Positions 52,186 to 61,562 are shown, counted from the whole stretch's first letter. The stretch is 62,981 nucleotides of DNA, filler included, from Reticulomyxa filosa (GCA_000512085.1; 21 parts of 21 records of this genome joined end to end with filler, not necessarily neighbours in it); one strand, 5' to 3'. Notes: generated from the letters alone by a model not told the origin. Numbers and translations: made by a program.

Positions 52186-53735
52186 TTATGTTGATTCGAG
52201 TGAACCTGATTTAACATCAAAAATGCCTCCATTGGGAGTGGGTAACATTTCCATTGAATTTGGATGATTATTGGGTAAATGAATGAATTGTTGATCTTTT
52301 TCATTATCAGTTGGAGTAGCAGTAACAGTAATGTCTGTATCCCATTCATTACTATCATTTCCTTCACTTTCGAGATGTTGCGTGTGAGTATCAACTTCCT
52401 TTGTCAGTGCAATTTCAGGTGTGGATTTTGTCTGTTTTGCAATTGATGTTGGTTGAGGCAATGGAGCAGGGTCAATGATACCTAGCGTGGCTTTCAACAT
52501 CATTTTCTTATCCGAATTCAGATCCTGACTATCCAAAAAATTTATTATGGTAGAGTCTTGCATTCCGAATTCTTTCATATTGTGAGTTATTGCTGCCAAT
52601 TGGCTAAATGTTATTTCTCTGTTTCTTCGATCTGCCTCCATTTGTTCTTGTGTACTGTGCCACCTTTGCATGATTGGATATTTCTTAAGCTCTTGTTTTA
52701 AACTATCGCAAAACGCTTCTTTCCAAAAAGTTTCCGATTTCCACAAGTGATGATGTTTTATTAGATCCACCAAAAATATTTTGTCTTGTTTTGGTAAGAG
52801 AGAGCGAGAGGAGGAAGAAACTGCCTGTATTTCAACTTTATCCCCAGTATTTGGACTCGTCTCTTCTTTTTTTTCGTTTTCGACGTTATCATCTTGCACA
52901 TTGGGTGGTGAGGAAGCTTCATTTATTTGACTTCTATAAACAAACAAAGCAAGAATGGGGAGAATAAATGAATAAAAACAGAGAGAGTTGTAAAATTAAA
53001 GGAAGAAAAAAGAGGAGAAAAAAAAAAAAAGATTCAAAACTCGGATGATCGCAATAGAGTGTCAGTCGAAGTGATAGTAGTAGTCGAGGTTGTGTTATTT
53101 GCAGGAGTTTGTAATAGTATTTTTTCTTGAAACTTCGGATCATCCGCCACACTGTCTTTGCGCACATACAGAGACTGGGTCATAATCATAACTAACTTTG
53201 CAGGCTTGACATCAATTGGATTGTGTTTTTCAACACTGTCACAAAACAATTCCACCAAATTGGCCAACTCAAGGAATTGTATCTTTCCTAATTCCAGTCC
53301 TGTTGTCGTGTTCGTATTTTAAGGGATTGTTATTCTATTTTTATGCTTTTGATAAATATATATATGTATATACATATATATATATTATGTATTCATATAC
53401 ACATTATATAACATGTATAAACATAATATACTCACCATGATCGGCATTTCTTTGTCGATTCAATAAGATGGCAAATGCCATTCTCCCTTCCACAGAATTC
53501 AAAGACTGCAGACACTGTGATTTCAGGTCCTGAAACTCTTCGTCGTTCAACTCCACGACTGGGGAAGAGGGTTGGTCCGTCGCATTTGCATTGGGACTGT
53601 CTCGAGGAGGCCCCTCTTTGCTTAACAGTTCCGGATCCCTTCCCAGTATCTTGCTCATCACCAAACGCCATTTCGCACACCACTTGTTCAATTCTGGCGT
53701 GTCTTCCACAGGTTCAGGTGGTTCAGATCGCAGGA
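52186..53735 (-). CDS. SBF2/MADD-like (DENN-associated) C-terminal region, three exons, 5' partial
   Basis: GRMAFAILLNRQR, AKLVMIMTQSLY, IKHHHLWKSETFWKEAF, ITFSQLAAITHNMKEFG. Confidence 0.65.
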
Positions 53736-53737
53736 TT

Positions 53738-53777
<40 letters not shown>

Positions 53778-55095
53778 NNNNNNNNNNNNNNNNNNNNNNN
53801 NNNNNNNNNNNNNNNNNNNNNTTAATTAATTAANNNNNNNNNNNNNNNNNNNNNNNNNNNNNNNNNNNNNNNNNNNNATCTTTGTTCTTCAAGCCGTGAT
53901 GAGGAATATAGAAAATTATGTCGAATTCTTGTTCATTCTTCTTTGTCTTGATATTGTTTTCAATATCCATTTCTGATTTCGTGTGTTGACTTGATCTTTG
54001 TGACAATACCAAATAACTCATTCAACATATCCGATTTTGTTCTATGTTTCAATGTCACATCGAATCCTTTAGAATTACAATCGGTACAATCACAAGTTTG
54101 AGAATTTGCTTGCTCCATCTTTTTAAACAGCAAACAAAAGTTTTAAAGCTCCTGTTTGCTGATAAAGCAGAATTTCTTTTATGAACATGTGTTTCTATTG
54201 GCCTGCTAGCCTTGCCAACGGCTTTCTCGTTAGCACCTCGTTTGATAAAATGCTCTTTCTTTTAACCGCACGCGCCTCAAAATCTGTGAAGTTTACACCA
54301 TCCAAAAATAAATTGCAACAAGTACGTTGCCAGAGGGTAACAAAAGAGTTGAAAGCCATACTCAAATCACAATATTACAAAATCTAACTATAAAAAATCT
54401 TTATATCACTATAAAAAAAATTTCACTAGTTGAAATTACTTCGAATTTTGTATTGCGATATCTAGTAAGTTGAAAATTGTCGACTTTTTCATGATCTTTC
54501 ATATCTTTCGAAATATTTGCTTTGCTTTCTAGATCTTGCTAATCTTTCACGATTATAGTCGATTGTAGATTTTTTTTTATGTTAAATATCCAAGTTTCCT
54601 CGCAGCTTTTCCACACTTAATTAATATTTGGATAAGTCATGTTAGAATCCAGAAACAATCCAAGATAGCACCAGGAAATCAACTCCAGAATCTTCTAACT
54701 CATTCTGGAGTGAAGTTGGCCGGACATGAATCTTATTCCACTCAAAGAAAAATGAAAGCAACACAAGACAAGTTCAACCAATTTGATTAAGATAAACTTT
54801 TGAAAAAAAGTTATATTTTGAAGGAAGGCAAGCACAGAACAACTAGATACTGCAACATCTAGCAGTATCTGAAAGAAGCTCGAAGTTAATCTTCGATTAT
54901 TAACAAAAAAAATAAATTATGAACAACAATTTTCGTCATCAACAAAATTGTGGTGAAAACAGAAACAAAGAAAATAATTTCACGACTAAAAAAAANNNNN
55001 NNNNNNNNNNNNNNNNNNNNNNNNNNNNNNNNNNNNNNNTTAATTAATTAANNNNNNNNNNNNNNNNNNNNNNNNNNNNNNNNNNNNNNNNNNNN

Positions 55096-57296
55096 GTTAT
55101 TGTCATTGTTATTGTCATTGTTGTCGTTATTGTTATTGTTATTGTCCTCGTCATCGTCATCGTCTCTGTTTTTGCTCGACACAATGGCGGTTTGCCCATG
55201 GTCTTGTCGTGGAGGAGAGCGATCGCGATTGGCTCGGGAAGACGATAGCGATTTGTGATGGTTGGTGTTGTCAAATTTCTTTCGGAATTCTTGCTGCGAC
55301 TTTTCCCATTCCACCTTCAATTGGTTCGTCGGTGTTTCTACAATCTTTGCAGAGGCCACGTTGCGCTTCGAGTCGCGAGGCTTGAAGCGCACGGCCTTGT
55401 TTGGATTTTTTTTTTTTTGGACGTATGTTTTCAACGCCCGGAAATGAATCATCCGACAAATATTGACTGTCTTTGTCCTGATCTCGTTCTTGTTCCTTTT
55501 CGTTTCCATTTTCATTATCATTATTGTTATCATTATCATTGTCATTGTTATTATTATTGTCGTTTTCGTCGGGCTCGAAGCGAGCCGTGCTTTCCATCGT
55601 CAACTTGCCCTTTGATGAACGCACGTCTGCGAACGTAATATCGTCGTGTCCGATCGTTGGATGGGCCACAAAGTCATCGCTGTATTTGGCGCCAGCAAGT
55701 GGCCCAAGTGTGTGATGACTAACAATGCTGGATGACGCTCTTTCTTTTACGCTCGGAGTTGGGAGTTCTGCCATTTTCGTCTTGTTTTTTCCAATTTACA
55801 AAAACAAACAAACACTTGCATAGTCTTCACATACATATATGTATATGTATATCCATGTGGAAAAATGAAAAGGTAACTTTAATTTGTTCACGTTCGACAG
55901 GAGTGACCATTTGATCATCCAATTGAAAATCCCGCAGGTCGTCTTGAATAAAAATATCCCTCAATTCAAATAAGCATTTGAAGCGGTAATTTTCTTCAAC
56001 ACAAATCGGGTTTTCATTTAAACGCAAGCATTCCAAATTCGGCAATTTGCGCAATGGTTGAATGTTTTGCAGTTTTGATATTATGTTGTATCGCAAGTCT
56101 AGTGTCTATTCATGTTTACAATTAATTATTTACATTAAAATATTGGCTTTACCAATTGAGATATGCATATATATATATAAATGTATAAAATATAAAAATG
56201 TAAATATATGTACACATATATGCATATATATGTATTTAAAATGATTAATATATAAACCTGTAATCCAAACAATCTCCACAAATCACCAATGTCATCGATT
56301 CTGTTCTGCTGCAAATTGAGATGACAGACATTGCCAATGACCAAGTGAATATTACGTACATAACGAATTTCATTGCAACTCAAGTCAATGTCGGTGAGTT
56401 GGAAGCACTCCTCCAGGTTGCAAATTTCGCGAATGCTGTTGAAGCTGAGATTCAGGTGTTTCAATTGGATCAGTCGTTTCAGACACTTGTGCATAAAGTT
56501 GATTTTGCAATTGCTGGCCCGAAGATACGTCAACTGCGGCCAGTCACTCACGCTGATAGAACTGAGACTGCTGTACGTTCGCAAAGGAGCAACGCGATCG
56601 TCCTTGTCCAACGACGGTCCCTTTTTCAATAGCGACAAATCCACGGACCGTTCGTACTCTCCTCTCCCATTCGTCAACGACTTGTCGTCAAAGTACTCGG
56701 ACCCATCACCGCCATATTCAGATTCGTTATCCAAGGATCTGTTCTGCCAGTCAACAAAACACATACACATACACGTACGCGTTAACATCCACGAAGCTCA
56801 ACTACAGTCCATTAAAAAAAAAAAAAAAAAAAAAAAGTCAAATAAAAATGAAAACGAATGGGAATCAACTCTTTTATCAATAAAATGGAAAATGAAAAAT
56901 GAAAACGGAAACTCATTGTGTGGTTCCAATAAATGAAATAGCTCTCGAATGCCGTTTTCCATGATCAAACATTTCAAAGACTTTCGCAGACGCCCGATGG
57001 AATGGAAACGACGTATTTCGACGTTTGTGACGGTGAGTGCCTCCAATCTCGTGAAAATGTACAAATCCAACACGCGGGACTTGCGCTTTCTCTCTTCCAC
57101 CATTGCTCGCAGTGATAAGTCGGCCGTGTCAAACGGTTGTTTCAGTCCCAATATATACTGTCCTTCTTCCATCGATATCACCGGTGGAGTTACGCACAAA
57201 CACATTACTTTCATCAGACACTCGCGCAAACGAAGGAATTGCTCCAGGCCTTCTTTCTTCAATTCCACGCGAGCAACGCGTCGCACTTCACTCACG
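55096..57296 (-). CDS. STK11IP/nischarin-like leucine-rich-repeat region (3' part of a larger gene)
   Basis: LDLYIFTRLEAL...LRKSLKCLI, WPQLTYLRASNCKI, LKHLNLSFNSI, LTDIDLSCNEI, LNLQQNRI, LDLRYNII, LRLNENPIC...YR (LRRcap), then a low-complexity tail. Confidence 0.82.
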
Positions 57297-57501
57297 CTAC
57301 ACAAACATTCGATTCCATCATACAGTCGAAGAAAATCCAAAAAACATGTATTATATATGTACATATACAATGAAAGAGACACAATATACTGGTATTGCTC
57401 TTTCCTTTATTTGCTTGTTTGTTGGAAGAGGGAGAAAAGCAAGGGATAGCAATTAACTTTTAAAAAACACACAAGTACACGCACAAACATAATCACATAA
57501 C

Positions 57502-58414
57502 GATTTGTGATGATGAGAAATAGAAAATGTTTCCAATCGAAATGAATTCACTGGTGGCAATTTCAATTTTGCACCTTTTTTGTTGTTGTTGTTGTCAATC
57601 CACAAACAAGTCAATCACTCTTTTTTTTTAATATAAAAAAAAAAACTAAACAAAACGCGTTGCACTTGTGTATTTTGACAAATTCGTCAAAAGCTTGTTT
57701 GCCTCGGTTGCCTGGACCATAAATATTTCCTTCTGATGACGAGTGCACTTGGGGCTCACTTTGATTTCCAAATGAATTTGTATTTTTGTATTGTTGTTGT
57801 ATTGACACAAAGAAAGAAAGAAAGAAAGAGAGGAAGAGAGAAGGGAACAAAAAACGAACGTGCAAAAGCCACTTCCAACACTTCCAACTTTTTTATAGTC
57901 GGTGATAAGAAAGTTCTTTTTGGAGTGATGAAAGACAAAGTGTGCAAAGGAGTTTTTGATTTCAGCACTCATGGTTTTCTCTCCATACGGCATTGTATTT
58001 TCAACCATTTTTTGCATTGGTTGGTCAAACTCGGGGATGTATTCCTCCACATAACACAATATTGCACCGTGACGATTTTTTAATTGCAACACGAATGGCT
58101 TCAAAAAGTGCAATGGCTTTGGGATATCTTTTTTGTTTCATGTTATTATTGTATTCATTGTTGTTGTTGTTGTTATTATCCAATGTTGTCAATGCAAAAC
58201 AAAGATCAAAACATTTGGAAAATGCATCTCCGAAATATTTGGCAATGTAAAAACATCTCAATCGATCCCAGAACGATGTGCGATCCCACTCGGTGCCGCT
58301 CTGGGCCACAGCAGCTACGCCTTTGCTGATACGAGCGCCACTAAAGAGGGGTGATCGAAAAGAGCGTATTGTGCTTGTTTCGTCATTGTCTTTATCCATT
58401 TATCCCACAACAAC

Positions 58415-58446
<32 letters not shown>

Positions 58447-58745
58447 GAATACAATGTTTGTTCACTCATTTCGATATACACACAAACCTTCGACCAACTC
58501 CGGATCCACATCAGTACAGCGAACCATTCGACATACAAACGACTTCATTTTATTTTTCGGCGACAAATCTTTGAGATGAAACAATAGATAGTGTTGTCCA
58601 ACGTAAAATGGAGTGATGTGTATTTTCACTTCTGTTTTCGTGCTTTTCAGTTTGTGTCCTTCACAACTCCATTTTTTAGCCGTTTCCGCATCCGCATTAT
58701 CCCACAATACATTCAATCTGCCACTGGTCAACATTTCGGGCAAAG
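57502..58745 (-). CDS. Alpha-kinase (eEF2K/MHCK-type) domain, catalytically divergent (5' part of the same gene)
   Basis: AKYFGDAFSK|YIPKPLHFL, VEEYI, SFAHFVFHHS, ITDYKKV, CT|EPQVHS, YGPGNRG, HKCNAF|CAKLKL. Confidence 0.8.
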
Positions 58746-59427
58746 CTTTATTTTTTAAAAAATGTATTAAAATTGGCGTGGTACACACATATGCATATAT
58801 GGCGTATATGCAATCAAACAAAAGGATAATAAAAAAAAAAACAATGGTATGATATACCCATATTTGNNNNNNNNNNNNNNNNNNNNNNNNNNNNNNNNNN
58901 NNNNNNNNNNTTAATTAATTAANNNNNNNNNNNNNNNNNNNNNNNNNNNNNNNNNNNNNNNNNNNNGTTGGATATCGTTTGTGGATTCTGCATAAAAACA
59001 ACATTAGTTACGGTTTTGTCAAAAAATGTATGCAATGGCAGAATTTCCATCAAAGAGACGCGATTTTAGAGAACATGGAATGGGCTGCTATGTAAATTTC
59101 ACAGCATGTGTTAAGAGTTTCTTGGACATTTTGAATATTTTTAACGTAGACTTGAGACAGGTTCATAAGTGTTGTGTTTATCCAAAAAAAATGGAAGCAT
59201 CGTTGAGAATATATGGAGAGTATTTTTTTTGACAATTTCACTTCAACAATTGTTATCCATTAGTAAAAAAAAAAAACCAAAAAGCAAGTGCTTACCCAAT
59301 TCAACATCGACATTGAGCATGCACTGTTCAAATTGCAAAAATGAAAAACTTTGCAAATGACATTTTTTTTTTTTTTTTTTGAGTCGGAGAGAAGAAGGGA
59401 GGAAAAAAAAGCACAAAAGAAAATTGG

Positions 59428-60722
59428 TCAAGTGTCAACCATATCCCATTCATTACTTTCATCACTATCCTCCTTTTTAGTTTCCGAATTTGGAGCCGTT
59501 TTTGTGTCTGAATGAGGTTGCTTTTGCGTGTCATAAAGAGAAGTGACGGCTTTGGTTTTCACATTTGTCAGCGTACTTTTCATTTGTTCGAAAGCTTTGG
59601 TGGCTGCCTTTGTGAGTCCAGCAGTTTCAGCCAAAGAAGAAAAGATGTCGTACGTAGAATGAGAACGCGACTGAAGCACAGAGGAAGAAGCAGACAAAGG
59701 CGCAGGAGAAGTGGAGTTTTGAAGTGGCAATTCCTTCTTCGCGTCATTGAGTCCTTTGACATTGTCGCGATGATGAGTCATCGTATTGGCATTGTTGTGA
59801 GTATTGTTGTGAGTATTGTTGTGAGTATTGTTGTGAGTAGTCGTAGTAGTAGTAGTAGTAGTATTGGTAGTAATAGTATTAGAGTTACCAGGATCACGTC
59901 CAGTGTTATTGGAATGATTCATAGACTCATGTTTAGAATTGTGTTCCAACGTTTGGATAGGAGGTTTGTTTGGAATGGAAGACGACTTGCTGTTCGAATG
60001 TGCAAATGGAATAAGAGCATTGTTTGTCTTTGTCGGTTTCGTCGATTGGGGCAAATTGGATTCGATGGTTGCAAGAGGATGTTGTTGTTGTTGATGACAA
60101 TGTGTAGTACTAGTAGTAGTAGTAGGAGTAGTAGTAGTAGTAGTAGTAGTAGGAGGAGGAGGAGGAAGAGGCTTGGATAATCTCTTGACATTTTGTTGAT
60201 GCTTCACAAGAAAAAGAGCGTCTTGCTGTTGCCACTTGGACTCATAATCGTGCTGCAACTCGCGCAGATGACGCATGAAATGGAGCAGGTTTTGCACAAA
60301 AGTAAAGTAGCCAATGTCTTGTCGTGACATTCCGATGCTGATGCAAATGTGACGAATGTTCGCCTCCAAATGCAGCAACGCCACTGCGAACTCGTGATTG
60401 TCCGCAAATCGAGGCTGCTCTTTCCCGTCTTTGTCGACGATGCTTATGTTTTCGATTACTTTGATAGCATGTTCTCGTTTGCGTTTTTTGGCATGTTTAT
60501 CTTTCTGTTTTTTGCATTTGCATTTGTGTTTGTGTTTGTGTTTGTGTTTCGAGGTTGGTGGAATTGTATATATTCTTAGCTGATTCCTTGGATGAAGGAC
60601 TCGCTTTATTACAATCGCCGTCATCCAAGAGCATTGCTCCTTGTGGCATGGACGCAGACCTCTTTCGCATTCCATGTTCGCCAAGATATCACCGCCATTG
60701 CGATTGTCTGTGCTCGCTTGCG

Positions 60723-60766
<44 letters not shown>

Positions 60767-61562
60767 GAATTGACTTTGGTCGGAAGAATAGCATTAGTAC
60801 TCATGCGTCTACGATTAACCTTGTCCAACGCATCCAAGGCCTTTGTTTTGGACACATTGATATCCACATTGGTGAATGTGGTGAGTGGCATCTGCTTCAG
60901 ATTGGACTCGGTGATATCGTTCCAGTACAGACGGAATATGTCACTGGATTGCTGATCCTCCACATATGCATGCAGCACGAGCACATTCGACGGGTCACGA
61001 TGGAACAAATGCATGGGGTACAGCAAGTCAATGTTCAAGTATCGACTTATGCTAAGACACAGCATTACAATGCTTTCCAACGCCGCACAGCCCGCATGTT
61101 CCGGATGAGGTTCTAATGGGATTAACCAATCCCCCATTCAAAACAACAACTTTGTTCCCTTTTTTTTTTTAAAAAAAAAAAACAATACAACTCAGTTTCT
61201 ACTAAAACGATGTCTCCATCCACTCTGCTTTTCTTTTTCTTTACTTTCCGACGCGTTGATATTTTCCCCCTTTGCTTTTGCCTTCTCTCTTTCTCTTTTA
61301 TCTCTTGCCTTTTCCTTTTCCTTAATCGCCGTCAGCTTCTTGTCCAGCAGCACAGGATTCAAGCTGGTGTGCTGCTTGTAGCTCGGGGCTATCTGTTCGT
61401 CCTTGCCATGGAGCACGCACAGTGTAGAATTGGAAATGCTAATGTTGTCAGTGCTCTTTTGGCATTCCATGCTATCGTTGCTGGTCATGCTGTCGCCGCC
61501 ATCGGGTTGAATGTCCTCACTGCAGCTGCTGGTACCACTGCTGCTGCAAGTGCTATGACTGC

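Follow-up and report, generated by a model that had tools for sequence, protein, structure and literature searches.

In eEF2K and in the MHCK-type alpha-kinases of Dictyostelium, an N-terminal alpha-kinase domain is combined with a partner domain, which is an eEF2-binding region or WD40, and the alpha-kinases of protists are described as recombining with many domains (PMC2827801). ALPK3 has been described as the first alpha-pseudokinase, with the loss of four residues that correspond to G1725, K1729, Q1769 and N1797 of TRPM7 (PMC9698156), although another group reported it to be active (PMC11358020). Nischarin has the domain order PX-leucine-rich repeat (LRR)-PH and STK11IP (LIP1) has LRR-PH, and the membrane targeting of these animal proteins is ascribed to the binding of phosphatidylinositol 3-phosphate (PI3P) by the PX domain in the former and to the binding of TMEM192, by which the protein is lysosomal, in the latter (bioRxiv 10.1101/2021.08.27.457973). 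Here, we analyzed a window of 62,981 nucleotides from Reticulomyxa filosa, by which we mean the whole stretch of DNA examined, and describe a gene on the minus strand of one of its contigs (55096-58866; 3,771 bp), in which an alpha-kinase domain, altered at most catalytic positions, precedes a nischarin-like LRR region. We consider it most probable, at about 0.58, that the gene encodes a dead alpha-kinase fold that is held by zinc, occupies the place of the PX domain of nischarin and docks a partner on an LRR-PH scaffold at endosome-like or lysosome-like membranes.

Gene structure and fused relatives

The first-pass annotation of the window had joined a pseudo-alpha-kinase in frame to an LRR protein by four introns (introns 2 to 5 in Table 1), and our analysis bore this out, as the coordinates are right, each intron starts with GT and ends with AG, the frame is kept throughout and the quoted junction peptides are correct. 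With four further introns (introns 1, 6, 7 and 8), the gene has nine exons and eight introns, and the joined frame of 827 codons runs with zero stops through the alpha-kinase domain and a linker into the nischarin-like LRR region. In a 3-periodic Markov coding test, which was leave-one-out and trained on the same gene with a small training set, all nine exons were coding-positive (+0.10 to +0.31 bits/base) and all nine intron-like stretches were non-coding in all three frames, including the intron at the kinase-LRR junction (57501-57297, 205 nt; -0.17 to -0.28).

To define the relatives, an exhaustive HMMER search was performed with exon 3, resulting in nine proteins: the gene's own record (P0001), two canonical alpha-kinases that were used as comparators (P0009 and P0012), four degenerate relatives that all carry the same altered motifs (P0005, P0006, P0010 and P0011) and two repeat artefacts without an Alpha_kinase match, which were dropped (P0007 and P0008). 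Among the degenerate relatives, two have the fusion. In P0006 (R. filosa RFI_03666), the domain order is the same, with Alpha_kinase at 138-336, LRR at 531-672 and weak PH_S11IP_C and PH_NISCH_C matches at 1060-1141, and the alignment of this protein to the window gene spans the kinase-LRR junction. P0010, a protein of 402 aa from a 12,344-bp contig in Logan/ENA, passes without a stop from the C-lobe of the kinase (Pfam E 4e-12) across the zinc site to a segment that matches exon 6 (residues 256-391, E 6e-12; reached by 0 of 1000 shuffles), and its reading frame is probably uninterrupted because the inserts are rich in S, T and N and protein-like, as judged from the protein record. P0005 (RFI_08727) terminates at the position of intron 3 and P0011 about 35 residues beyond the zinc site. 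Furthermore, the predicted paralogs contain intron-like text at the positions of introns 2, 3, 4 and 7 of the window gene, which indirectly supports the splice sites.

Two adjacent genes could be read instead, with the kinase ending at TAA 57455-57453 and an LRR gene beginning at ATG 57364, since both signals exist in the right frames and P0011 likewise ends soon after the zinc site. However, merely 88 nt would lie between the stop and the start, both extensions are non-coding (-0.33 for unspliced read-through and -0.08 for the 5' extension of the LRR gene, compared with +0.10 to +0.31 for the exons), P0010 is stop-free over the same junction and P0006 has the two parts in the same order, so that this arrangement is highly unlikely. 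The nine exons very probably belong to one gene, as far as can be judged from the DNA.

Further fused relatives were not found in word-indexed protein searches, one of which returned only the gene's own record, one the own record with three LRR proteins lacking a kinase domain, and another P0006 only (705-2010 aa searched). The other contigs of the window gave no match to the kinase relatives or to the C-terminus of P0006, and the Atlas gave no usable match to P0010. The sole locus in a scan of Joint Genome Institute metagenomes (L001) was rejected as a chance match that ends in a stop and has no kinase motifs. Separately, R. filosa has a third copy of the degenerate kinase in P0005, for which the annotation of its 9.4-kb contig gives no more than a fragment of 172 aa, and a further LRR fusion may be encoded in the DNA downstream.

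The kinase domain and its catalytic residues

The ORFs (open reading frames) that contain exons 3 and 4 passed the cut-off of 21.3 for Pfam Alpha_kinase (PF02816) with 36.8 and 28.9 bits, respectively. No relevant Pfam match was obtained for those holding exons 1, 2, 5 and 6, and exon 1 alone matched nothing in Pfam or PDB; the N-lobe is nevertheless present, as exon 1 aligns to that of the canonical kinase P0009 with a score of 70, which 0 of 1000 shuffles reached. The best PDB matches of the subfamily profile were kinases of the eEF2K and Dictyostelium MHCK type (E 3e-17 to 4e-16). A match to 7rdr in a separate search was discarded as a repeat-protein artefact. 'VAK' and 'hinge' are used here as labels, and N1797 of TRPM7 is taken to correspond to the GN loop. 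The position of K645 was mapped via the VAK motif of P0009. For other positions, MHCK-A numbering was obtained as the printed chain position + 534, which gives R592, L659, D663, W692, F720, K722, D756 and D766 as published (PMC4876393), and Q758, G759 and E713 follow from the same offset.

The catalytic cleft is altered in the same manner across the window gene and its degenerate relatives. The Q758 position is K in all five sequences and the G759 position is K or R in all five; the D766 position is E in each of the four that cover it, D663 is replaced by R in 3/3, and R592 in the P-loop is replaced by Y or Q in both of the covering sequences. The G-x-F-x-K motif (K722) is unalignable in the four sequences that cover the region, with no Lys in register. 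At the position of the catalytic Asp, D756, two of the five have Ser. The window gene itself has Y52 for R592, R72 for K645, R128 for D663, K223 for Q758 and no Lys at K722, and it keeps Asp at D756 (D221); P0006 perhaps still has K at the K645 position, where the register is uncertain. Regarding the residues of TRPM7 described as invariant, namely K1648, D1767 and D1777 (PMC2827801), the first corresponds to K645 and is replaced, the second to D756 and is retained, and the third to D766 and is Glu in 4/4; the positions of R592, D663, K722 and the Gln of DxQ have all departed from the active type in the window gene. The changes that the first-pass annotation had listed (GQHY, VCR, DYKK and TEPQ) are all as it gave them, and its pseudokinase proposal gains strength from the recurrence of the changes in five sequences and from further changes outside that list.

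As the first-pass annotation had noted, the zinc site is retained, with H207, H264, C266 and C270 of the joined frame as its His, His, Cys and Cys by sequence. The first zinc His is kept in 5/5, the second His and the first Cys in 4/4, and the last Cys in the window gene, P0010 and P0011, P0006 being mis-spliced there. The hinge Glu is kept in 4/4 and the Asn of GN in 3/4. Compared with eEF2K and the MHCK-type kinases, the zinc site, the hinge Glu, the GNxG loop and the N-terminal place of the kinase domain are shared, whereas the R592, D663, K722, Q758, G759 and D766 positions are changed and the partner domain is LRR. In a tree of seven rows, a size that does not allow the family to be dated or rooted, the five degenerate sequences lie on one side of a 100/100 branch separating them from the two canonical kinases.

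In MHCK-A, Asp766 is described as catalytically essential, D663A/S as leaving about 1% of kinase activity, and R592 as important and non-essential, R592A lowering kcat only 6-fold (PMC4876393). The altered domain is best read as a conserved alpha-pseudokinase subfamily. Because the P-loop Arg, the alphaC Asp, G-x-F-x-K, the Gln of DxQG and the Asp of DPQ are all changed together, phosphotransfer appears to have been lost, and kinase activity is probably little or none. It may also be conceivable that the domain of the one fused gene is a rewired active kinase or ATPase, in which basic residues replace metal and phosphate contacts and the LRR supplies the substrate as WD40 does for MHCK. The retention of D756, the hinge Glu and the GNxG loop in the window copy, the conservative nature of D766-to-E and K645-to-R, the modest cost of R592A, the reported activity of ALPK3 despite its lost residues (PMC11358020) and the role of appended domains in locating alpha-kinase substrates (PMC2827801) all fit such an enzyme. 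We regard it as rather unlikely, as at least five catalytic-cleft positions are altered together, the catalytic Asp is Ser in 2/5 and the substitution of D663 alone is already so damaging to MHCK-A. A decaying relic carried along without function would account for the strong divergence of the N-lobe between the paralogs and for the long low-complexity inserts in the hinge region. This is hardly credible, however, since all five sequences carry the same replacements, exon 3 of the window gene shares only 35-61% identity with three of the other sequences, the zinc ligands are retained, and the frames and splice sites are intact.

With respect to ALPK3, the positions of its lost G, K and Q are also lost in the subfamily described here, according to our own mapping, whereas the Asn is kept in 3/4 and the P-loop Arg, the alphaC Asp and the DPQ Asp are altered in addition; the partner domains are also different. 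The two are presumably of independent origin, the tree being one without ALPK3.

The LRR region and a possible adaptor role

The first-pass annotation had called the second half STK11IP/nischarin-like. The LRR assignment held, as the exon 7 ORF passed LRR_8 and the exon 7 and exon 8 ORFs matched LRR families in Pfam, and of the two names nischarin is the nearer in both comparisons made. Nischarin (8esf) was the best PDB sequence match for the LRR of both paralogs, with E 2.8e-20 over a 188-residue stretch of the window gene and E 1.5e-6 for P0006. In the Atlas, the structural neighbours 1-3 of the model of P0001 were PX+LRR clusters (template modelling (TM) score 0.67), followed by fungal LRR clusters, and STK11IP clusters came in rows 8-10 (TM 0.63-0.64). 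When the profile of alignment A1 was used, three Roco-type LRR entries ranked over 8esf. The likeness to nischarin consists of the LRR with its cap, the PX+LRR structural neighbours and the weak PH_NISCH_C match in P0006; the difference is the alpha-kinase domain in the PX position. STK11IP is similar in its LRR, in the Atlas rows and in the weak PH_S11IP_C match within the C-terminal PH-type region of P0006, and it differs in that the LIP1 domain (PF15904) was not found in exon 6 or P0001, even with E values of up to 1 allowed, and in that the window gene carries a kinase domain, none being described for STK11IP in the portions of the literature consulted. No PX domain was found by Pfam on the contig, whose 5' end may be incomplete, or in P0006, and because of this the protein was not filed as nischarin.

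The exon structure, the domain order with its recurrence in two relatives, the shared substitutions and the retained zinc ligands with the GxGNxG loop can be read directly from sequence, and they form the basis of the following proposal. The 57502/57296 splice would be made in the cell to give a single kinase-LRR protein, in which phosphotransfer would have been lost through the joint changes of catalytic residues. The zinc site would keep the fold, and the substrate-side loop (GxGNxG) may still bind a protein partner; the GXGXXG loop of alpha-kinases is assigned to substrate recognition (PMC2827801). The degenerate kinase would then replace PX ahead of the nischarin-like LRR as a partner-docking module, and the full-length protein would end, as P0006 does, in a PH region of the nischarin/STK11IP type. 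Such an adaptor at endosome-like or lysosome-like membranes may couple the partner to trafficking or cytoskeletal machinery, a location suggested by that of animal nischarin and STK11IP (bioRxiv 10.1101/2021.08.27.457973). The endomembrane adaptor role has about an even chance of being correct.

There are also points that weigh against this proposal. Regarding the kinase, the window copy keeps D756, the hinge Glu and the GN Asn, its K-to-R and D-to-E changes are conservative, P0006 may keep the Lys of VAK, and activity is reported by others (PMC11358020) for ALPK3, which is called a pseudokinase on similar grounds (PMC9698156). In the tree, label shuffles were as low in 80/500, with only seven rows and two canonical kinases. 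Regarding the fusion, the 57502/57296 splice is deduced from DNA, two of the four relatives (P0005 and P0011) are fragments that end before any LRR, P0006 and P0010 are known here from protein records, and P0006 is a gene prediction with visible mis-splicing. Regarding the scaffold, the model of P0001 in the Atlas has a predicted local distance difference test (pLDDT) of 0.51, a PH region is not found on contig 55096-58866, where the 3' end of the gene is probably missing, and the PH matches of P0006 lie under the Pfam cut-offs (20.6 and 18.8 bits compared with 22 and 27). In addition, targeting devices such as PX-PI3P and TMEM192 binding are, from the sequence, not established for the window protein.

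Another explanation is that the cleft of the dead domain, relined with Lys and Arg, reads a ligand, binding a metal-free nucleotide, a phosphopeptide or a phosphoinositide head group and thereby switching or targeting the LRR scaffold as PX does in nischarin. Positive charge is added at three adjoining cleft positions throughout the subfamily (D663 to R, Q758 to K and G759 to K/R), the hinge Glu is kept in 4/4 and the kinase domain is in the PX position. On the other hand, the cleft could instead be closed by pairing of these basic residues with E766, and the P-loop and G-x-F-x-K, on which the form of the nucleotide pocket depends, are lost or cannot be aligned, making such a function unlikely. 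The structure prediction named in the first-pass annotation yielded models too poor to use (pLDDT 45.7 for P0010 and 38.6 for P0006, from 10-row alignments), also for telling a sealed cleft from an open one, and Foldseek found no match at E 0.001 or better with the P0010 model.

Contig features and significance

The coordinates of the locus are summarized in Table 1. The contigs of the window are joined by artificial N44-TTAATTAATTAA-N44 linkers (20 pairs of N runs; e.g., gaps 55040-55051 and 58911-58922), so that adjacent contigs are probably not genomic neighbours. The 5' end of the gene may lie off the contig because the 121 nt ahead of exon 1 resemble the 3' part of another intron, and the 3' end is probably missing because the best-coding frame past the A13 run 55418-55406 is open to the contig end. 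The deposited model, ETO04755.1 (P0001; 693 aa, R. filosa), which is named nischarin and was found by a protein search with exon 6, likewise joins the kinase and LRR parts, though with other splice calls. We did not adopt its start or its splice sites for the kinase part, which break the Pfam match (15.3 bits), and it probably changes to the wrong frame at the A13 run and stops early.

Table 1. Features of the kinase-LRR gene and its contig, in window coordinates.
Feature	Position	Strand	Evidence
AT-rich intron-like stretch with AG at its end, at the contig edge; untranslated-region intron or intron after a missing coding exon	58746..58866	-	GC 0.26; all frames intron-scored, -0.21 to -0.31
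Exon 1: alpha-kinase N-lobe; first ATG 58734-58732; P-loop GQHY (R592 position Y), VCR (K645 position R)	58488..58745	-	Alignment to P0009 N-lobe
Intron 1, 98 nt; absent from the first-pass list	58390..58487	-	GT..AG, frame kept
Exon 2: subfamily insertion and helix alphaC (WDRLRC; D663 position R)	58213..58389	-	Matches to P0005 and P0006; register vs MHCK-A and eEF2K
Intron 2, 85 nt	58128..58212	-	GT-AG, frame kept
Exon 3: hinge Glu, G-x-F-x-K motif lost, first zinc His, DYKK replacing DIQG	57860..58127	-	Pfam Alpha_kinase E 5.6e-9
Intron 3, 101 nt	57759..57859	-	GT-AG; deposited models of the gene and of P0006 both run into intron-like text here
Exon 4: EPQ replacing DPQ, GPGNRG loop, zinc His and Cys	57652..57758	-	Pfam Alpha_kinase E 1.5e-6
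Intron 4, 77 nt	57575..57651	-	GT-AG, frame kept
Exon 5: last zinc Cys and linker	57502..57574	-	Similar segment in P0006; lowest coding score of the nine, +0.10
Intron 5: kinase-LRR junction, 205 nt	57297..57501	-	GT..AG, phase 2, stops in all three frames; intron-like score
Exon 6: N-terminal part of the nischarin/STK11IP-like leucine-rich region	56913..57296	-	P0010 residues 256-391, E 6e-12; P0006; Atlas structural matches to nischarin and STK11IP clusters
Intron 6; donor chosen in the present analysis, later donor in the deposited model	56739..56912	-	Joined-frame reading
Exon 7: low-complexity insert and LRRs	56258..56738	-	Pfam LRR_8, LRR_4; best PDB match nischarin 8esf
Intron 7	56106..56257	-	Identical in deposited model
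Exon 8: last LRRs and nischarin-type cap	55878..56105	-	Pfam LRR families; PDB nischarin match
Intron 8	55781..55877	-	Identical in deposited model
Exon 9: low-complexity tail, which probably continues past the contig end	55096..55780	-	Joined frame; coding score
A13 run, likely homopolymer frameshift error	55406..55418	-	Downstream of the run: frame open to contig end 0.33, deposited frame 0.14

Elsewhere in the window, the minus strand holds an uninterrupted ORF of 569 codons at 59428-61137, which is unusual next to the intron-rich kinase-LRR gene; its N-terminal part looks ordered, and no Pfam match was obtained at E 0.05. A 269-codon ORF at 52186-52995, also on the minus strand, has a weak SBF2 (myotubularin-related) match (E 0.002, under the cut-off) and probably forms the final exon of a gene to which the ORFs 53034-53318 and 53404-53775 also belong.

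A literature search with most subscription papers and the R. filosa genome paper outside its scope found no paper on alpha-kinases in Reticulomyxa or Foraminifera; papers retrieved for alpha-kinase together with nischarin dealt with other topics, and no description of the fusion was met in titles and the starts of abstracts. The fusion of a conserved alpha-pseudokinase subfamily with a nischarin-like scaffold is apparently undescribed, although the automatic name of P0006 already mentions an alpha-kinase domain, so that the architecture of the paralog is visible in automatic annotation. The meaning of the finding is tempered in that the shuffling of alpha-kinase domains in protists is known and R. 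filosa is hard to work with. It is rather unlikely that the genes form a conserved, multi-copy alpha-pseudokinase family whose basic cleft reads a phospho-ligand and which, in a nischarin-type endomembrane adaptor, provides targeting or switching in place of PX; if true, a kinase fold would have become a sensor, perhaps one that serves organelle transport in the foraminiferan reticulopodial network. More generally, ALPK3 is the only alpha-pseudokinase claim met in the literature consulted, and its inactivity is disputed, whereas the family described here could provide a cleaner test of an alpha-kinase fold without catalysis because more catalytic positions are changed, and in the same way in several copies. 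It would also indicate that the nischarin/STK11IP scaffold can bear another N-terminal module.

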